Assembly (NCBI RefSeq): GCF_003334305.1
Contig: NZ_QOWS01000010.1
Strand: one strand, 5' to 3'
Length of the DNA: 64,000 nt
Source of the DNA: Escherichia coli
GTDB lineage: Bacteria > Pseudomonadota > Gammaproteobacteria > Enterobacterales > Enterobacteriaceae
The notes under the pieces were generated by a model, which worked only from the letters and a program-made list of their open reading frames with translations, was not told the origin of the DNA and did no database searches. Below, one piece after another: positions 1 through 8,806 of the stretch (position 1 is its first letter; each line of letters begins with the position of its first letter). A program made the translations under genes and the position numbers.

Positions 1-2972
1 AACACCAGGCGGTGCTGGCTGTCGTAGTGGTAGTGGTGGGTCCGCTCGTCGTCCGTCCGTATCACACCCGTCGGGATACGGTCCGTCTTCTCCGTCAGTC
101 TGCCGTATTCATCATAGTGGTAAACATAGTGCGCATCCTCTGCGATGCGGTTATCCGGCCACACTGTGAGTGTACTGTCCGGGTGCAGCTCCGGGTCCGG
201 CAGCCGGTTGCCCGCCGGGTCCGTGGCATACGGGATGCGGATGTCCAGGTCTGGTGCGAGGGTGCGCACACTCTCCAGCCTGCCCGTGGCGCTGTAGCCG
301 TATTCCCGCGTCTGTCGCGGGCCGCTGATGCGCACCAGGTCGCCGTTGTCACTCCACCCGTAGTCACGGTCATATACCAGGCTGTTCAGGTGCTGGCTCT
401 GTAACTGGCCTGCGGGGGTGTATGTGCTGGTCAGTTCGTATGCGGCATTACTGCCTGCCATGCTGCCGAAGCTGCGCACCGTCTCACGGTGCAGCCTGTC
501 CCGCGTATACTCGACCAGCGGCGTCCCGCCCAGCTTCATGCCCGCCAGGTAACCGCTGCCGTAGGTCAGCCACTCCACCGGCGGCAGGCTGTCCGGCGTG
601 ACGCGGTTTGCCAGCCCCTGTTCGTTGTAGGCGTGTTTCGTCTCATGCTGCCACAGCAGTTCCCCCGTCTCCGGGTTCTCCACCGTCTGCCGTTCGCCCG
701 TCAGGCGGCCCTTATCGTCGTAGCCGTAGTGGACAGCGACACGGTGGCCTTCGCTCAGGTGGCTGATTTCTCTCAGCCAGCCGTGGCCGTCATACTGCCA
801 CTGCTCTGCCGGGTCGCCGTTCACCGTCCGGTGCGTGATGCGGTCCGACGCATCGTAGTGCCAGAGGGTGACAAGCCCCTCATCTTCACTCTGCGTGAGT
901 TTTCCGGTCAGGTCATAATGATAACGTTGCGTCCGCCCGTCAAAGCCGCCCTGCTGTACCAACCGGTCCAGCGCATCGTAGCTGAAGTCGCTGTGACTGC
1001 CGTTCTCGTTAGTCAGACTGATGACACGTCCGGCAGCATCGTATTCCATGCTGCGCGTCAGCCCGCCCTGCGTGGTGCTGACCGCCTTTCCCCACGCATC
1101 GTACTGTGTCTCGCTCCGGTTGCCGTCCGGGGTGATAACGGCAGTCAGGTCGCCTGCGGCGTTGTACTCATACTGCGTTTCACGGCCCTGTGCGTCTTTC
1201 ACCGAGGTTAACCGGCCACGGTTGTCATAGTGGCGGTAAAGGCTGATACCTTCCTCGCGGTGAACCGCCGTCATCTGGCCGAAGCGGTCGTATTCATAGC
1301 GGGTCTGGTAGCCCGAGCAGTCAGTGAACGCCAGCAACTGCCCGTAGCGGCTCCACGTCATCTGCCGGGTGCTGCCCGTCGCATCCGTTGTCGTCGCCGG
1401 TAACTCACTGTGCGCGTCATCGTAGCGGTAGCGTACTGTCTCCCCGCTGCGCGATGTCTCCGATACCAGCCTGCCCGGTTCATCATATTCCCGGCGGCTC
1501 TCCAGCCCGTCCGGGTACACCACCGCCGTCAGCTGGTTCCCGTCGTTATAGTAAAATTTCGTCTCCCGCCCGTCCGGTGTGGTGATGTCCGTGATATCGC
1601 CGGACACCACATTCAGACCGTACTCTGTCCGCCGTCCCGCCGCGTCCGTCTGCGCCGTGAGCCTTCCTGCCGCGTCATACCCGCTGTGCGTGACGCTGCC
1701 GTCCGCCAGTTCTTTTTTCACCACCCGCTTCAGCCCGGCCCCGCCTTCTGTATGCAGCACCTCACGCCGGTTCAGGCTGTCGGTGACGGTGATGCGGTCC
1801 TGCTCATACTGGTAGCGGTAACTCAGGCCTGCCGGGTTAAGTTGCTCCACCACCCGCCCCGCATCGTCGTAGCGGTAGCGCATCTCCGGCCTGCCTGCAT
1901 AACGGTGCCCCACCATCCGGCCCCGGTATTTATCATCGTAAGTAAAGTGGCGCATCTGCGTACCGCTGCGGTCATACACCGCCGCCAGCTCACCGCGTGG
2001 CGTCCAGTCGTAGCACACCAGTGGCGCGGCAGGTAAATTTTCCGGGTATTCCGGGTCGTGCATCAGCCACACCGCCGAAAGACGGATACCGCTGTCAGCG
2101 CCGTATTCCGTACCGGGCAGTGTGTCGGGGAAGGAAGGAGCTGAGAGAGGGCGGGGACTGTCAGGGGAAGATAACGAAGCGGTGTGCGGTTTACGGGCCT
2201 CTTCCGCCCGCTGTGCCTGTGTGGTCAGTACCAGACGGAACTCCCGCCCGGCACCGTCCGTCACGCCGGTGATTTCCCCGGCCAGGTCACCGGCGGCCTC
2301 ACGCCGGTACGCCAGCGTCCGTCCGAAGCGGTCCGCCATCCCGGTAAGCACCCGGTACGGCGGCAGCGGCGCTGGCAGTAAGTCCTCAGCACCCGGCACC
2401 CGCTCAGACCACCCCAGTATCCACCACGGCCCCTGTGCGCTGTTGGTCGCCAGGTAAAGATGCGGGCTTAACCGGATATCCGGCGGCAGCGCCCCCCACA
2501 GCCGCGCCAGCGTATGGCCGTCCGGCTGTGCTGCCTTACCACCGCGCACCAGCCACATTGACTCACTGCGGCTGTACACCGCCTCCCCCGGCAGCAGCGG
2601 CTCAAAGTGAATGCTCCGCCCGCCGTTGTCGTTGAGTACCAGTGCATCATCGCGTATCTGTAAGCGGATATCAGAAGGCGCTTTCCAGCCGGGGCCAAAA
2701 ATTCCCACCGGCGCAGGCGTCTTCGTCCGGTAGCTGCTGTAGGTGCGGGAGAGAATGAACAGCAGCGGGTCGGGCAGCGCAAGGTCCGTCTCGCCGGGCT
2801 GTACTTTTGCACCGAGCAGCGGGTTCACCGGGTTGCCCGAGGTCATCCCGCCCGGACACACCGAGCACGCCACGCCAGTTGGCGCGCCAATTCTTACACC
2901 TGCCGAACCCTGGACAATGGGACCGCCATACTGAGTCATATCTCCCTGACGCGCCGCTGGTTTTCCGCTCAT
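1..2972 (-). CDS. rhsD: Rhs-family polymorphic toxin core protein, N-terminal ~990 codons (partial; continues beyond window start)
   Basis: Reverse-strand translation from ATG (complement of 2970-2972) reads [57 protein letters not shown]..., the conserved Rhs N-terminus; frame stays open to position 1. Absent from ORF track because no stop codon lies in the window. Symbol inferred from K-12 synteny (downstream of ybbP). Confidence 0.9.
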
Positions 2973-3400: not shown

Positions 3401-5815
3401 TCACCCCGCAAACTGCCTGAACAGCGCCTTACCCTTAACCAGTCTCGCGCCCAGCCAGCCGCCGAAAAGCGACAGCAGCAGCGCACCGCTGCACGGCAGA
3501 ACAATCCACAATCGCCAGTCTGGCTCCCACGGGAAATCAAACACTTTCGCCTGCAACACTGCCAGCGCCGTTTCCGCACCAATTGCGGCTACCAGGCCAG
3601 AAACAAACCCAAGCATGGCGAACTCGCACCACAATGTCGTACGCAGCAGTTTTTTCCCCGCACCGAGTGTGCGCCACACCACCAGCTCCTGATGACGCTG
3701 ACGCATTCCCACCTGCACCTGTGCCAGCAACAGCAACATACCGCAGGCGGTGACCAGCACCACCATCACCTCCAGCGCCCGACTTACCTGCTCCAGCACC
3801 TGACCGACCTGTTTTAAAATCGCGCCAATGTCTAACAGGCTAATGGTAGGGAACTGGCGGTTGAGTTGTGTCAACATGCCGTTGCCATTCTCCCAGCGGA
3901 AACTGGTAAGCCAGCTCTGCGGTTGCCCGTCTAATGCCCCTTCAGGGAAAATAAAATAGAAATTAGGCCGCAGACTTTCCCAGTCCACTTTGCGCAGGCT
4001 GGTCACTTTAGCGCGGAACTCCTGGGTATCGCCCATAAAAGTCACGGTATCACCGAGGGCAACGTTTAAGCGTTTCGCCAGCCCCTCTTCCATCGACACT
4101 TCATCGGCTTTTGGCGGCCAGTTACCGGCGACAATCGGATTATGATCGGGTCGCGTATTTTGCCAGGTAAGATTGAGTTCGCGGTTAAGCGCCTCATCTT
4201 CATTACCTTCTGTCGGCTTATCGTTAATCGCCGTCAGCCGCGCCCGCACTACCGGATAAAATGATTCCGGGACTATCTGATGTTCCGCGAGGAACGCTTT
4301 TAGCGGTTCTACCTGTTCTGTGGCAATGTTAATTAAAAAGTAGTTCGGGCTTTCTGGAGGTAGCTGCTGCTGCCAGCGGTCAAGCAGATCGCCACGCAAT
4401 ACCAGCAACAGCGCCAGCAGCATAAAGGAGAGCGAAAATGCCGAAAGCTGGCTTAATGTTGACCACGGCTGACGTAACAGGCGGCTAACCGCCAGGCGCA
4501 GAGGTAGCGATTTCAGCGTCATGCGGCGAAGTACATTCAGCATCATCCAGCCCAGCACACCGCACAGCAAAGCCAGTACTACCGCGCCCGCCAGCACCGC
4601 CCAAAGCAGCATGCTGCCACCCATTAATCCGGCGAGCAGCAGCACAACCACCACACTGACAATCGGCAGATAAAACTTCAGCGGCCAGACGTTCGCGACC
4701 ACATCATTACGTAATACGCGTAAAGGCTGCGTTGCCAGCAACAAGCGGTACGGTCGTAGCCCCACCAGCAGCGAGATAACCGTCATGGTGCCCAGCGCCC
4801 ATAGCCACGGCCAGAGGCTGGCTGGCGGTAGTGCAGCAGGCAGAACGGGCTTGAGCAGCACCATCAACACGTTTTCGAACAACAGGCCTATCGCCCCACC
4901 GGTAACGGCTGAAAGCGCCAGCACCAGCAACCACTGACCGACGATTAGCTTACGCAGTTGCGCTCGCCCTGCCCCCAGCGTTTTGAGGATCGCCACCAGA
5001 TCGTAGCGACTGCGACAGTAATGATTCATCGCTACCGCCACTGCTGCCACTGCCAGCAGCAAGGTCAGAAGCGCCGAAAGCAGCAGGAACTGTTGCGAGC
5101 GTTCCATCGATCGCCCCAGCGCGCCTTCGTCCTGTTCCAGACCGTACCAGCGTTGTTCGGGTTTAAGCTGGGGTAACAACCATTTCTCATAGCCGTCGAG
5201 CTGGTTCTCGTTGCCGCCGAATTTATAACGCCAGGTGACCCGACTCCCCGGCTGCACGGCTCCGGTTTTATCGACATCCGCCAGATTCATCATCAGACGC
5301 GGAGCCATCTGGAAGGGGTTAAAACCGGAATCCGGTTCCTGAATCACTTCTCCGGCAATCCGCAAGGTGGCATCGCCCACGTCAATGGTGTCGCCCGTTT
5401 TCAGGTTAAGCAGCGCCATCAGGCGTGGGGCCAGCAATACGCTGCCCGCCTGCGGTTTCAGGCCAGGGGGATTAGTTTGCAGATCGCCATACATCGGGTA
5501 GATATCATCCACCGCTTTGACGTTCGCCAGCTGCGGTGTGTCGCCTGCAAATGTCATGGTGGCGAAAGTCAGCTGCTTGCCGACTTTCAGGCCGCGCTTT
5601 TGCGCTTCCTCCAGCCATGCTTGCGGCACTTCGCGCGAACTGCGCAACGCCCGATCGCCCGCCATAAACTCCCGGCTTTGTTGGCTTAAGCCCTTCTCCA
5701 TGCGATCGCTGATATTGCCCAGCGCCAGCACGCAGGCCACCGCCAGGCTTAGCGCCAGCCAGACAATTAATAGCGACGGCGAACGCCATTCGCGCCAGAA
5801 CCAACGTGCAATCAT
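3401..5815 (-). CDS. ybbP: ABC transporter permease, FtsX-like (LolE/MacB-type), 804 aa
   Basis: ORF track 3401..5815 (-), 804 aa, multi-TM; 4-nt overlap with the upstream ATPase gene ybbA. Confidence 0.95.
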   Translation of the reverse strand: MIARWFWREWRSPSLLIVWLALSLAVACVLALGNISDRMEKGLSQQSREFMAGDRALRSSREVPQAWLEEAQKRGLKVGKQLTFATMTFAGDTPQLANVKAVDDIYPMYGDLQTNPPGLKPQAGSVLLAPRLMALLNLKTGDTIDVGDATLRIAGEVIQEPDSGFNPFQMAPRLMMNLADVDKTGAVQPGSRVTWRYKFGGNENQLDGYEKWLLPQLKPEQRWYGLEQDEGALGRSMERSQQFLLLSALLTLLLAVAAVAVAMNHYCRSRYDLVAILKTLGAGRAQLRKLIVGQWLLVLALSAVTGGAIGLLFENVLMVLLKPVLPAALPPASLWPWLWALGTMTVISLLVGLRPYRLLLATQPLRVLRNDVVANVWPLKFYLPIVSVVVVLLLAGLMGGSMLLWAVLAGAVVLALLCGVLGWMMLNVLRRMTLKSLPLRLAVSRLLRQPWSTLSQLSAFSLSFMLLALLLVLRGDLLDRWQQQLPPESPNYFLINIATEQVEPLKAFLAEHQIVPESFYPVVRARLTAINDKPTEGNEDEALNRELNLTWQNTRPDHNPIVAGNWPPKADEVSMEEGLAKRLNVALGDTVTFMGDTQEFRAKVTSLRKVDWESLRPNFYFIFPEGALDGQPQSWLTSFRWENGNGMLTQLNRQFPTISLLDIGAILKQVGQVLEQVSRALEVMVVLVTACGMLLLLAQVQVGMRQRHQELVVWRTLGAGKKLLRTTLWCEFAMLGFVSGLVAAIGAETALAVLQAKVFDFPWEPDWRLWIVLPCSGALLLSLFGGWLGARLVKGKALFRQFAG

Positions 5816-6498
5816 GCTTCCTCCTGCAACTGCCCGTTCACCAGCCGTAAGCAGCGGTCGCAGCGTGCCGCCAGTTGCAGGTCGTGGGTCACCATAATCA
5901 ACGTGGTGCCATGTTCACGGTTGAGGGAAAACAGCAGGTCGGCAATTTTATCGCCCGTCTGGCGGTCAAGGTTGCCGGTGGGTTCGTCGGCAAACAGCAC
6001 ATCAGGTCGACCATTAAAGGCTCGTGCCAGCGCCACTCGTTGCTGTTCACCGCCGGAAAGCTGTGCCGGAAGATGATCCAGACGTTTACCCAGCCCTAAC
6101 TGTTCGAGCAACGCTTTCGCCCCGTTACGACTTTCCGCGCTACTCTCACCGCGCAGCAGAGCCGGAAGCTCGACGTTTTCCAGCGCGTTAAGGGTAGGAA
6201 TTAACATAAATGACTGAAAAACAAAGCCGACGTGCTTCGCGCGCAACTTTGCCCGCGCTTCTTCGTCCATATTATGTAGCGGTTGTCCCACCAGACTCAC
6301 TTCGCCACTGCTGCCGTCATCAAGCCCGGCGAGGATCGCCAGCAAGGTTGACTTACCCGATCCCGACTCGCCCACCAGTGCGATGGTCTCGCCACGTTTG
6401 ACAACCAGCTCAACTCCGGTGAGGATGGAGAGTTCATGCTCCCCCTGACCGACGGACTTCTTAAGATGATGAACTTCAACAATGTTTTCCGCTGGCAT
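5812..6498 (-). CDS. ybbA: ABC transporter ATP-binding protein, 228 aa
   Basis: ORF track; Walker A GESGSGKST, ABC signature LSGGEQQR, Walker B LFADEPTGNLD. Confidence 0.95.
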   Translation of the reverse strand: MPAENIVEVHHLKKSVGQGEHELSILTGVELVVKRGETIALVGESGSGKSTLLAILAGLDDGSSGEVSLVGQPLHNMDEEARAKLRAKHVGFVFQSFMLIPTLNALENVELPALLRGESSAESRNGAKALLEQLGLGKRLDHLPAQLSGGEQQRVALARAFNGRPDVLFADEPTGNLDRQTGDKIADLLFSLNREHGTTLIMVTHDLQLAARCDRCLRLVNGQLQEEA

Positions 6499-7092
6499 TT
6501 GCCCTTCCTGTTCCTGGTCCTGTTAACCTTCCGTGCCGCCGCAGCGGACACGTTATTGATTCTGGGTGATAGCCTGAGCGCCGGGTATCGAATGTCTGCC
6601 AGCGCGGCCTGGCCTGCCTTGTTGAATGATAAGTGGCAGAGTAAAACGTCGGTAGTTAATGCCAGCATCAGCGGCGACACCTCGCAACAAGGACTGGCAC
6701 GCCTTCCGGCTCTGCTGAAACAGCATCAGCCGCGTTGGGTGCTGGTTGAACTGGGCGGCAATGACGGTTTGCGTGGTTTTCAGCCACAGCAAACCGAGCA
6801 AACGCTGCGCCAGATTTTGCAGGATGTCAAAGCCGCCAACGCTGAACCATTGTTAATGCAAATACGTCTGCCTGCAAACTATGGTCGCCGTTATAATGAA
6901 GCCTTTAGCGCCATTTACCCCAAACTCGCCAAAGAGTTTGATGTTCCGCTGCTGCCCTTTTTTATGGAAGAGGTCTACCTCAAGCCACAATGGATGCAGG
7001 ATGACGGTATTCATCCCAACCGCGACGCCCAGCCGTTTATTGCCGACTGGATGGCGAAGCAGTTGCAGCCTTTAGTAAATCATGACTCATAA
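6466..7092 (+). CDS. tesA: Acyl-CoA thioesterase I / protease I / lysophospholipase L1 (SGNH hydrolase), 208 aa
   Basis: Track ORF 6436..7092; start placed at MMNFNNVFRW (ATG 6466); signal peptide then GDSLSAG motif. Confidence 0.93.
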   Translation: MMNFNNVFRWHLPFLFLVLLTFRAAAADTLLILGDSLSAGYRMSASAAWPALLNDKWQSKTSVVNASISGDTSQQGLARLPALLKQHQPRWVLVELGGNDGLRGFQPQQTEQTLRQILQDVKAANAEPLLMQIRLPANYGRRYNEAFSAIYPKLAKEFDVPLLPFFMEEVYLKPQWMQDDGIHPNRDAQPFIADWMAKQLQPLVNHDS

Positions 7093-7891
7093 AGCAACGG
7101 AGATCCTGACAGGTAAAGTTATGCAAAAATCGGTCTTAATTACCGGATGTTCCAGTGGAATTGGCCTGGAAAGCGCGCTCGAATTAAAACGCCAGGGTTT
7201 TCATGTGCTGGCAGGTTGCCGAAAACCGGATGATGTTGAGCGTATGAACAACATGGGATTTACCGGCGTGTTGATCGATCTGGATTCACCAGAAAGTGTT
7301 GATCGCGCAGCAGACGAGGTGATCGCCCTGACCGATAATTGTCTGTATGGGATCTTTAACAATGCCGGATTCGGCATGTATGGCCCCCTTTCCACCATCA
7401 GCCGTGCGCAGATGGAACAGCAGTTTTCCGCCAACTTTTTCGGCGCACACCAGCTCACCATGCGCCTGTTACCCGCGATGTTACCGCACGGTGAAGGGCG
7501 TATTGTGATGACATCATCGGTGATGGGATTAATCTCCACGCCGGGTCGTGGCGCTTACGCGGCCAGTAAATATGCGCTGGAGGCGTGGTCAGACGCACTG
7601 CGCATGGAGCTGCGCCACAGCGGAATTAAAGTCAGCCTGATCGAACCCGGTCCCATTCGTACTCGCTTCACCGACAACGTCAACCAGACGCAAAGTGATA
7701 AACCAGTCGAAAATCCCGGCATCGCCGCCCGCTTTACGTTGGGACCGGAAGCGGTGGTGGACAAAGTACGCCATGCTTTTATTAGCGAGAAGCCGAAGAT
7801 GCGCTATCCGGTAACGCTGGTGACCTGGGCAGTAATGGTGCTCAAGCGCCTGCTGCCGGGGCGCGTGATGGACAAAATATTGCAGGGGTGA
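7082..7891 (+). CDS. ybbO: Short-chain dehydrogenase/reductase family oxidoreductase, 269 aa
   Basis: ORF track; Rossmann motif TGCSSGIG, catalytic YAASK; start overlaps tesA stop by 11 nt (alternative start at internal ATG ~7121 possible). Confidence 0.9.
   Translation: MTHKATEILTGKVMQKSVLITGCSSGIGLESALELKRQGFHVLAGCRKPDDVERMNNMGFTGVLIDLDSPESVDRAADEVIALTDNCLYGIFNNAGFGMYGPLSTISRAQMEQQFSANFFGAHQLTMRLLPAMLPHGEGRIVMTSSVMGLISTPGRGAYAASKYALEAWSDALRMELRHSGIKVSLIEPGPIRTRFTDNVNQTQSDKPVENPGIAARFTLGPEAVVDKVRHAFISEKPKMRYPVTLVTWAVMVLKRLLPGRVMDKILQG

Positions 7892-7909: not shown

Positions 7910-8806
<897 letters not shown>

Follow-up and report, generated by a model that had tools for sequence, protein, structure and literature searches.

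The divergent tesA and ybbA genes of Escherichia coli overlap head to head at their 5' coding ends

Do two divergently oriented genes of E. coli truly begin inside one another, and, if so, what does such an arrangement mean for their expression? These questions are raised by tesA and ybbA, whose coding regions had been predicted, in a sequence-only reading of a 64,000-nucleotide stretch of DNA (contig NZ_QOWS01000010.1; the window), to overlap by 33 nt at their 5' ends, with the promoter of each gene inside the coding sequence of the other. The window originates from an E. coli chromosome, and many chromosomes of this species match it with 100% identity. Inspection of the sequence and of its open reading frames bore out the gene identities, the coordinates and the length of the overlap given in that reading. 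In our assessment, the locus is best explained, with a probability of about 0.8, as a genuine head-to-head overlap of genes for partners of one membrane-bound machine, the YbbAP-TesA complex of a type VII ABC transporter and a lipid hydrolase. We are highly confident of the architecture described below (Table 1), and we advance a regulatory role for the overlap only tentatively, with the odds somewhat against it.

Table 1. Features of the tesA/ybbA locus (positions are those of the window)
Feature	Position	Strand	Remarks
ybbP, permease	3401..5815	-	ATGA overlap (4 nt) with the ybbA stop
ybbA CDS, MacB/LolD-type ABC ATPase	5812..6498	-	228 aa; ATG at complement of 6496-6498
tesA promoter, -35 TTGACA	6398..6403	+	in ybbA codons 32-34; within 50 nt upstream of the TSS of Kim et al. 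(2012)
tesA promoter, -10 GAGGAT	6421..6426	+	17-bp spacer; weak match (3/6), A2 and T6 kept
tesA TSS	6434	+	45 reads (Kim et al., 2012, Table S1); inside ybbA codon 22
tesA 5' UTR	6434..6465	+	32 nt; antisense to ybbA codons 12-22
tesA CDS	6466..7092	+	208 aa from ATG 6466; 207 aa from ATG 6469 (RefSeq)
Head-to-head CDS overlap	6466..6498	both	33 nt, or 30 nt with tesA start 6469; codons in register
TesA signal peptide coding region	6466..6543	+	residues 1-26; mature protein from 6544 (Ala27)
ybbA Shine-Dalgarno AGGAAGGG	6502..6509	-	antisense to TesA signal-peptide codons Pro-Phe-Leu
Candidate ybbA TSS	6653	-	2 reads only; weak TTGCGA-17-TGGCAT upstream (6687-6659)
Second candidate ybbA TSS	6885	-	2 reads only
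ybbO	7082..7891	+	same direction, 3' of tesA; 11-nt overlap

Start codons and extent of the overlap

Both open reading frames are genuine protein-coding genes, since their products are identical to proteins of solved structure (TesA to PDB chains 1IVN and 9GE8_T, YbbA to the YbbA of PDB entries 9GE6-9GE8), and both are annotated across 5,4xx E. coli genomes. TesA possesses a GDSL motif and a signal peptide, YbbA the Walker A motif GESGSGKST, and the locus as a whole combines the components of a type VII ABC transporter locus: a MacB/LolD-type ATPase, a translationally coupled permease and a divergently encoded, secreted SGNH hydrolase. With the K-12-style tesA start, the overlap has the sequence ATGATGAACTTCAACAATGTTTTCCGCTGGCAT; RefSeq/PGAP places the tesA start at 6469, which reduces it to 30 nt. 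The codons for Met1-Met2 of TesA lie antisense to those for His10-His11 of YbbA, and the TesA His11 codon lies antisense to the ybbA ATG. Among the nine divergent junctions in 50 kb of the window, that of tesA and ybbA is the sole overlap, and the other eight gene pairs are spaced by 69-261 nt. Divergent overlaps are rare in general; they account for 2 of the 663 overlapping pairs counted in the reference genome of E. coli (PMC4161906) and for 1% of well-characterised prokaryotic overlaps (PMC2478687). An Rfam scan of positions 5700-7300 on both strands (E<=1) found no RNA families. The tesA/ybbA overlap is confirmed as real, beyond chance or annotation noise.

The start of ybbA can only be at 6498. 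Between the in-frame stop codon at 6525-6523 and the Walker A motif, the ATG at 6498-6496 is the only ATG, GTG or TTG; the next in-frame candidate, a GTG that directly precedes the codon of the Walker A glycine, could not act as a start. The notion that ybbA might instead initiate at an internal methionine, through which the sequence-only reading would have given up the overlap, is thus untenable. This ATG is kept in all 15 aligned Enterobacterales orthologues, and the alignments of LolD and of the nucleotide-binding domain of MacB, the closest solved relatives of YbbA, begin at YbbA residues 5-9. The Shine-Dalgarno sequence of ybbA has a predicted anti-SD pairing energy of -7.0 kcal/mol, and the motif cc(c/g)ttcct of this region is retained in most Enterobacterales.

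The tesA frame, which is closed by the stop at 7092, offers in-frame ATG codons at 6436, 6466 and 6469. Our analysis shows that, for a functional Sec signal peptide cut before Ala27, tesA has to start at 6466 or 6469, and the overlap therefore measures 33 or 30 nt. Mature TesA comprises residues 27-208 in the PDB chains 1IVN and 9GE8_T, and only 15 codons separate the ybbA ATG from the cleavage site. At least one of the two ATG codons is present in each of the 16 Enterobacterales loci compared, with neither one being universal, and TesA orthologues retain the n-region M(M)NF..F R.H. In C. werkmanii, Rahnella, Acerihabitans, Photorhabdus, Providencia and Pectobacterium, the only tesA starts available fall within the hydrophobic core (N<=19) or bring an overlap of at least 30 nt. 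The tesA Shine-Dalgarno sequence is weak, with a computed pairing energy of -3.2 kcal/mol for both 6466 and 6469. The TRAINSPOTTER and TetRP supplements make no mention of tesA or ybbA.

Two other start codons were considered for tesA, and both were rejected. The ATG at 6436..6438, which would yield a 218-aa precursor and enlarge the overlap to 63 nt, has the best Shine-Dalgarno sequence of all tesA candidates (-8.4 kcal/mol, as against the value given above for the two downstream ATG codons), is found in most Enterobacteriaceae and corresponds to existing 218-aa database entries. However, with transcription starting at 6434 (see below), this codon begins at +3; its leader would be only 2 nt long, and its SD-like GGAG/AGGA (6422-6432) falls outside the transcript. 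Moreover, it is the antisense of YbbA His21, Citrobacter L003, Rahnella L012 and Photorhabdus L013 lack it, and in Rahnella a TAG stands directly before the conserved ATGATG. Initiation at 6436 is very improbable.

Slightly more improbable still is an annotation artefact in which tesA would truly start at the TTG at 6499..6501, directly after the ybbA start codon, so that no coding overlap would exist. Many database entries of 197 aa, the annotation of K. pneumoniae KPN_00472 as 594 nt and the finding by Palleja et al. that the divergent overlaps of more than 60 nt which they examined were all 5'-extension errors (PMC2478687) are in keeping with this reading. The TTG, however, has no Shine-Dalgarno sequence (-1.5 kcal/mol), and in 7 of the 16 Enterobacterales orthologues the codon is a non-start codon (TGG, CTC, TTT, TTA or GTT), with no other start before the hydrophobic core. 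It would leave a 15-residue signal peptide devoid of any charged n-region, which is at odds with the export of TesA and its cleavage at Ala27; furthermore, at least one upstream ATG is always present and lies within the mapped tesA mRNA. The sequence-only reading had allowed for a smaller overlap through a downstream tesA start, and these data speak against it.

Probable facing promoters and constraint on shared DNA

The transcription start site (TSS) of tesA was taken from Kim et al. (2012), where it is listed at position 519021(-) of NC_000913.2 with a 32-nt 5' UTR, and the accompanying 51-nt sequence maps to positions 6384-6434 of the window. This start, which rests on one dataset and whose mapped base is a U, is located 64 nt inside ybbA. 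A strict consensus promoter scan of positions 6100-6900 found nothing; a position-weight scan revealed TTGACA-17-GAGGAT, with its perfect -35 box, as the best plus-strand match in positions 6250-6950, just upstream of the TSS. These data show that a sigma-70-type promoter lying within ybbA codons 25-34 drives tesA, in agreement with the placement of the tesA promoter inside ybbA by the sequence-only reading.

A motif of the form TTGACA-17-nAGGAT occurs in the same register in 33 of 80 gammaproteobacterial loci. We rejected its interpretation as a conserved gammaproteobacterial promoter, since shuffling of synonymous codons demonstrated that the YbbA peptide alone yields the motif (p=0.25 in E. 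coli; p<0.05 in 0 of the 80 loci). The motif is largely forced by the peptide IL.GV.L.VK, and its presence in distant taxa is therefore uninformative with respect to function. The E. coli promoter motif could itself be a by-product of the YbbA peptide that happens to fire.

For ybbA, the location of the promoter follows from geometry: since the 594 nt upstream of the ybbA ATG are all tesA coding sequence, the ybbAP promoter must lie inside or beyond tesA. The sequence-only reading had placed it inside tesA, and the two weak candidate TSSs of two reads each (Table 1) are consistent with this. A search of tesA for a conserved ybbA promoter found none; the sites that fit these TSSs are weak and vary among species, the TTGCGA-17-TGGCAT element not being conserved in other Enterobacteriaceae, and past codon ~18 tesA shows background synonymous diversity. 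Since the tesA TSS (6434) has a lower coordinate than the ybbA start (6498), above which any ybbA TSS must lie, the two promoters would face each other. Bidirectional promoters are common in E. coli. A single shared promoter with a symmetric -10 element, which would drive back-to-back transcription and might be expected where divergent genes without a spacer share promoter DNA, can be discarded as extremely improbable here, given that these TSSs do not point apart from overlapping -10 elements.

The DNA of the junction is strongly constrained at synonymous sites. Synonymous diversity amounts to 0.08 in ybbA codons 1-11 and 0.09 in tesA codons 1-10, compared to gene-wide values of ~0.5; in ybbA codons 12-35 it is 0.29, a level not reached in any of 165 background windows, all of which score at least 0.48. 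It drops to 0.00 for the ybbA codons V32, V33 and K34 underneath the -35 box. The suppression in ybbA spans exactly the region from the start codon to the -35 box, past which diversity returns to ~0.57; in tesA, which serves as an internal control, it ends ~25 nt beyond the ybbA ATG. Positions 6394-6522 are at least 99% identical in 5417 of 5418 E. coli genomes, compared to 2746 of 5419 and 4331 of 5418 genomes for two control segments. In this multi-use DNA, synonymous change is strongly reduced from genus to genus, and E. coli genomes show almost no polymorphism. At the protein level, TesA His11 is invariant in 15 of 15 orthologues, and YbbA His10/His11 are confined to Enterobacterales.

The first ~35 codons of ybbA therefore also hold the tesA promoter, the tesA 5' UTR and the first 11 tesA codons, and codons 11-15 of the TesA signal peptide likewise hold the ybbA start codon and Shine-Dalgarno sequence on the opposite strand. 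About 130 nt of DNA encode the N-termini of two proteins and act at the same time as promoter, 5' UTR and ribosome-binding regions of both genes, which freezes the sequence.

The junction across Gammaproteobacteria

We surveyed the junction in the 80 gammaproteobacterial genome loci already mentioned; the comparison of start codons within Enterobacterales drew on 16 loci. The divergent arrangement of tesA and ybbA-ybbP is found in 79 of the 80. Seventeen junctions, all from Enterobacterales, overlap by at least 30 nt, 18 are of the CATG type, 9 abut and 36 are gapped, mostly by less than 100 nt. A CATG junction corresponds to a 2-nt overlap, and the CATG is present with an in-frame tesA ATG in 36 of the 80 loci. 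In 44 loci the spacer is within +/-2 nt or the genes overlap. Expressed as junction lengths, values range from -100 to +2 nt outside Enterobacterales; within this order, an overlap of 30/33 nt is present in 16 of 16 loci, with larger overlaps in Pectobacterium (51-78 nt) and in one MAG. Across these loci, the two genes thus remain divergent neighbours with hardly any spacer between them, and the overlap of 30-33 nt is specific to Enterobacterales. A near-zero spacer, often as a shared CATG, would then be ancestral in Gammaproteobacteria; in Enterobacterales, the tesA start would have shifted by ~10 codons into ybbA, where the His codons (CAT) of YbbA provide antisense ATG codons.

Regulatory meaning and comparison with known systems

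Transcription of ybbAP from inside or beyond tesA would bring the two promoters face to face. The tesA and ybbA mRNAs would share a complementary stretch of at least 65 nt (6434-6498), probably of ~220 nt, in which both ribosome-binding regions are included. Such complementarity, together with facing promoters, would permit collision or occlusion of RNA polymerases and antisense pairing of the transcripts, as in an 'excludon'. The ratio of TesA to YbbAP could be set by such interference, with the stronger tesA promoter damping ybbAP. Transcriptional interference or co-regulation of the two genes, which the sequence-only reading had also proposed, is what we infer from this geometry, and it agrees with the ExcludonFinder catalogue (see below).

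How much of this is regulation? The overlap may be real and yet free of regulation, a reading to which we give only slightly less than even odds. It would have arisen as a neutral by-product of start-codon migration in a spacer-less pair; the conservation would reflect DNA used two or three times over, which encodes two proteins and also contains a promoter and two ribosome-binding sites, with the two operons expressed effectively independently. Junction lengths that vary from lineage to lineage suggest drifting starts more than a fixed device, the YbbA peptide yields the promoter motif as a by-product, and the reads for the ybbA TSSs scarcely rise above the limit of detection, so that collisions may be rare; moreover, partners of one complex are not expected to exclude each other. 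Against it stand the persistence of a near-zero spacer over a very wide phylogenetic range (the 44 of 80 loci mentioned above), the spacing of 69-261 nt in the eight neighbouring divergent pairs in the window and the overlapping transcription that was seen by RNA-seq in half or more of the 58 datasets analysed (PMC12288877).

A stronger proposal is that the spacer-less junction is an ancient, selected antisense device, with CATG or abutting junctions in many Gammaproteobacteria and the 30-33-nt overlap in Enterobacterales. Because each mRNA complements the ribosome-binding region of the other and each promoter is overrun by the polymerase of the other, reciprocal interference would set the ratio of soluble TesA to the membrane transporter YbbAP, or switch TesA between 'free' and 'docked' states. 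We regard this proposal as unlikely. Should the ratio of TesA to YbbAP indeed be controlled at the junction, the locus would represent a tractable excludon acting on a protein complex.

The genuine head-to-head overlap of genes for complex partners has practical consequences. The tesA gene is among the most engineered genes for fatty-acid production, where it is used in the leaderless form 'TesA. Deletions of the tesA 5' end or promoter swaps necessarily hit the ybbA start codon and its ribosome-binding site, and deletion of the first ~35 ybbA codons removes the tesA promoter. Knocking out either gene alone is thus likely to have polar effects on the other.

The overlap has been annotated before, and both it and the overlapping transcription were already published in two papers from 2025. 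YbbAP and TesA form a 2:1:1 complex whose operons were said to 'partially overlap' (PLoS Biol 2025, PMC12646458), and tesA-ybbA is among the 16 divergent excludons of strain MG1655 reported with ExcludonFinder (NAR 2025, PMC12288877). The K-12 locus tesA-ybbO/ybbA-ybbP (b0494/b0495; PMC12646458) has the same genes, start codons and overlap, and the object itself does not differ from the one studied here. What the present analysis adds is the argument that no re-annotation of start codons removes the overlap, the location of the tesA promoter and TSS within ybbA, the synonymous-site constraint and the survey of CATG versus 30/33-nt junctions.

In its TSS geometry, the locus fits the definition of a divergent excludon, in which neighbouring divergent genes have overlapping 5' transcription (PMC12288877), with the tesA TSS located in ybbA and the ybbA TSS necessarily in tesA; antisense overlap of the transcripts is evident from the TSS at 6434 and from the RNA-seq coverage in at least 50% of the 58 datasets. 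In classical excludons, the overlap resides in untranslated regions and the functions are opposing, whereas tesA and ybbA share coding sequence and encode partners of one complex. Mutual exclusion would be an odd design for such partners.

A second comparison is offered by the pR and pL promoters of phage 186, which reportedly interfere with each other as convergent, face-to-face promoters. The tesA/ybbA junction would resemble this system in its facing promoters separated by a short interval, ~220 bp if the TSS at 6653 is real. By analogy, the weaker promoter would be expected to lose activity to the stronger one through collision, occlusion or 'sitting duck' removal. Unlike in phage 186, the position of the ybbA promoter is uncertain, and interference at tesA/ybbA is an expectation.

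Finally, the junction recalls the misannotated divergent overlaps described by Palleja et al. (2008; PMC2478687), in which an upstream start codon had been chosen. In contrast to these, the tesA/ybbA overlap is below their 60-nt cut-off, and the pattern of their group i artefacts, shorter orthologues with a conserved downstream start, is not what we observe, given that the orthologues have the same long N-terminus and that 7 of the 16 loci lack the downstream start. Long divergent overlaps are usually dismissed as annotation errors; tesA/ybbA provides a clean and well-supported counter-example in a model organism.

Start codons of the overlapping genes

The raw sequence and the ORF list bear out the gene coordinates of the sequence-only reading, which had described a head-to-head overlap between tesA and ybbA; it measures 33 nt with the K-12-style tesA start and 30 nt with the RefSeq start. 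Codons of the two reading frames lie in register: YbbA His10-His11 (CAT CAT) is the antisense of TesA Met1-Met2 (ATG ATG), and the YbbA start codon that of TesA His11 (CAT). The window is E. coli chromosomal DNA: the 1.5 kb around the overlap are 100% identical to many complete E. coli genomes and were found in 5,419 of 5,426. The junction (6394-6522) is missing from seven or eight of these 5,426 genomes, and copies of it also occur on two plasmid records of the collection.

Features around the tesA/ybbA junction (window positions)
Feature	Position	Strand	Basis
ybbP	3401-5815	minus	RefSeq
ybbA	5812-6498	minus	RefSeq; ATG is the complement of 6496-6498
tesA	6469-7092	plus	RefSeq start; K-12-style start 6466
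ybbO	7082-7891	plus	RefSeq
tesA -35 (TTGACA)	6398-6403	plus	Position-weight scan of 6250-6950
tesA -10 (GAGGAT)	6421-6426	plus	Position-weight scan; 17-bp spacer from -35

Among the neighboring genes, the ybbA stop and the ybbP start share an ATGA (5812-5815) preceded by AGGAGG, the usual layout of translational coupling, and the rhsD Rhs element occupies the left end of the window (1-2971), directly downstream of ybbP. tesA and ybbO overlap in the same direction by 11 nt (7082-7092; TAAATCATGACTCAT). The ybbO start may merit checking, an internal Met14 lying just ahead of the TGxxxGIG dinucleotide-binding motif; the longest ORF of cnoX (ybbN) begins at ATG 7916, 12 codons from the RefSeq start at 7952.

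The choice of the ybbA start cannot remove the overlap. An in-frame TAA (6525-6523) stands nine codons upstream of the ATG, and from this stop to the Walker A motif (GESGSGKST, residues 43-51) the frame offers, besides ATG 6498, a single ATG, GTG or TTG, namely a GTG one codon ahead of Walker A, so that initiation of ybbA at an internal methionine, envisaged in the sequence-only reading, falls away. Ahead of the ATG stands AGGAAGGG-CAA, with a predicted -7.0 kcal/mol against the anti-Shine-Dalgarno (anti-SD) sequence. Since the alignment of the LolD and MacB nucleotide-binding domains begins at YbbA residues 5-9, the YbbA N-terminus holds no superfluous residues.

For tesA, the mature N-terminus serves as the fixed point: solved TesA structures, among them the TesA chain of the YbbAP-TesA cryo-EM complex, comprise residues 27-208 (ADTLLILGDS...). 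From the ybbA ATG to this cleavage site there are only 15 codons, and the single start codon among them is TTG 6499. This codon lacks an SD (-1.5 kcal/mol), would yield M-PFLFLVLLTFRAAA without a charged n-region, and is replaced by a non-start codon in 7 of 16 Enterobacterales orthologues (TGG, CTC, TTT, TTA in three, GTT); these properties speak against the earlier proviso that tesA might start downstream and the overlap shrink. In those seven species the only other tesA starts lie inside the hydrophobic core or are the conserved upstream ATG(s), so that the two genes must overlap by 30 nt or more. In-frame tesA ATGs are present at 6436, 6466 and 6469. ATG 6436 possesses the best SD match (-8.4 kcal/mol) but is disfavored on two grounds: it is missing in three orthologues, and the mapped mRNA 5' end lies only 2 nt away, so that its SD is untranscribed. 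Neither ATG 6466 nor ATG 6469 is universal in the Enterobacterales set; at least one of them is found in every orthologue (ACG-ATG in three genera, ATG-CTG in Photorhabdus). The overlap cannot be an annotation artefact, and this demonstration is an addition of the present analysis.

Promoters facing each other across the overlap

A tesA transcription start site (TSS) with 45 reads and a 32-nt 5' UTR has been mapped to NC_000913.2 519021(-) (Kim et al., 2012; PMC3415461, Table S1). Its 51-nt sequence maps exactly to 6384-6434, which places the TSS at 6434, within ybbA codon 22; TTGACA-17-GAGGAT, the best plus-strand match in 6250-6950, lies just upstream. For ybbA, the 594 nt upstream of the ATG are tesA coding sequence throughout, and its promoter must therefore lie within or beyond tesA. 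The claim that each promoter is located inside the partner gene thus holds for tesA by mapped TSS and -35/-10 elements, and for ybbA by geometry, with candidate sites only. There are two such candidates in the table of Kim et al. (2012; PMC3415461), at 6653 and 6885 (minus, 2 reads each); the motifs at both are weak, and their conservation was not found in other Enterobacteriaceae. A further 3-read internal TSS at 5965 (minus), assigned to ybbP by Kim et al. (2012), sits within ybbA and precedes the start of ybbP by 150 nt. A shared bidirectional promoter is ruled out, the tesA and ybbA promoters necessarily facing each other. On one strand, approximately 6398-6510 contains the promoter, the 5' UTR and the first 11 codons of tesA; the opposite strand holds codons 1-34 of YbbA together with the SD of ybbA. 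To this architecture we assign a probability of about 0.9.

Constraint and evolution of the junction

Synonymous-codon diversity among 15 Enterobacterales orthologues was 0.08 in ybbA codons 1-11 (the coding overlap), 0.29 in codons 12-35 (tesA 5' UTR and promoter) and about 0.57 from about codon 38 on; all 165 background windows of 24 ybbA codons gave at least 0.48. The three ybbA codons spelling the -35 box show zero synonymous diversity. In tesA, diversity was 0.09 in codons 1-10 and reached background from about 25 nt beyond the ybbA ATG, which speaks against a generic 5'-end effect as the cause of the long low-diversity tract in ybbA. Among 5,418 E. coli genomes, 5,417 match 6394-6522 with at least 99% identity, against 2,746 of 5,419 and 4,331 of 5,418 for equal-length controls inside ybbA and tesA, respectively. 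Reciprocal coding marks both proteins, as judged from their sequences: TesA His11 is invariant among the Enterobacterales orthologues because the ybbA ATG forces it, the next residues, Pro-Phe-Leu, are encoded antisense to the ybbA SD, and YbbA His at positions 10/11, whose codons supply the tesA ATGs, is confined to Enterobacterales.

A TesA profile scan of one genome per species yielded 80 loci, mostly from Gammaproteobacteria, whose junctions were anchored on the Walker A and GDSL motifs, with the tesA start chosen by a simple signal-peptide rule. ybbA, usually with ybbP, divergently adjoins tesA in 79 of them. Overlaps of at least 30 nt occur in 17 loci, all Enterobacterales; 18 share a 2-nt overlap in which CATG is common to both start codons, nine abut (0 to -2 nt), 20 have gaps of 3-30 nt (including 14 Pseudomonas), and 16 have larger gaps, mostly <100 nt. 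An in-frame tesA ATG at a CATG junction is present in 36/80 loci; such an in-frame CATG start is likewise present in 13 of the 14 Pseudomonas loci (-10 nt) and missing from the other, L041 (-11 nt). Eight other divergent junctions in the window are spaced by 69-261 nt, and the near-absent spacer with partner-embedded promoters is therefore an old property of the pair. The Enterobacterales junction differs from the others in reading-frame phase and, from the aligned sequences, looks like a tesA start relocated about 10 codons into ybbA.

In Salinicola tamaricis (L054) about 526 nt separate the divergent starts, the only clear departure from the tight spacing. Pectobacterium zantedeschiae (L011:2880-3100) carries a 48-nt insertion inside the overlap; YbbA, for which a single ATG is available, has 57 residues ahead of Walker A versus 42, and 16 extra codons lengthen the TesA n-region. 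Its divergent overlap of 75-78 nt (51 nt if a GTG is used) exceeds the 60-nt limit above which such overlaps are said always to be artefacts. In Candidatus Pantoea persica (L016) only short fragments of ybbA and ybbP lie beside a tesA match that is broken too, a state suggestive of genes being eroded in a symbiont.

TTGACA-17-nAGGAT is the top promoter-like match, in the same register, in 33 of the 80 loci, including Vibrio, Shewanella and Alteromonas. In the window it occupies 6397-6426, opposite minus-strand YbbA codons 25-34. Synonymous-codon shuffling revealed that the YbbA peptide IL.GV.L.VK yields the motif with nearly any set of synonymous codons (p=0.25 in E. coli; none of the 80 loci with p<0.05). 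Since this peptide alone generates it, the motif in distant taxa was rejected as evidence of a conserved promoter, and the evidence for selection is confined to the between-genus and within-species diversity measures. A conserved ABC-ATPase peptide motif thereby makes a promoter-like site on the opposite strand.

Possible regulation and relation to known overlaps

The tesA and ybbA mRNAs would be complementary over at least 65 nt (about 220 nt should the TSS at 6653 prove genuine), a stretch that would cover both ribosome-binding regions, and each polymerase would have to cross the promoter of the partner. Such an arrangement could permit collision or occlusion as well as antisense pairing; given 45 versus 2 reads in the data of Kim et al. 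(2012), the stronger tesA signal would be expected to damp ybbAP. We propose any regulatory role of the overlap tentatively, rating its chances somewhat below even; the main rival explanation holds that start codons drifted in a gene pair lacking a spacer, with the overlap as a neutral consequence.

The overlap is already contained in the K-12 and RefSeq annotations, and the tesA and ybbA operons have been described as "partially overlap[ping]" in the paper on the YbbAP-TesA structure, their linkage being taken as evidence of protein interaction (PMC12646458). ExcludonFinder independently lists tesA-ybbA among the 16 divergent excludons of MG1655, on the basis of RNA-seq coverage in half or more of 58 datasets (PMC12288877). 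Divergent overlaps are rare: of 663 overlapping gene pairs in E. coli, 2 are of this kind (PMC4161906), as are 1% of prokaryotic overlaps, all those >60 nt having been judged artefacts (PMC2478687). The tesA/ybbA overlap is therefore an unusual yet documented feature. The initial observation is confirmed and its interpretation supported; our analysis also locates the tesA promoter within ybbA, profiles the constraint and adds an evolutionary picture leading from CATG to a 33-nt overlap.
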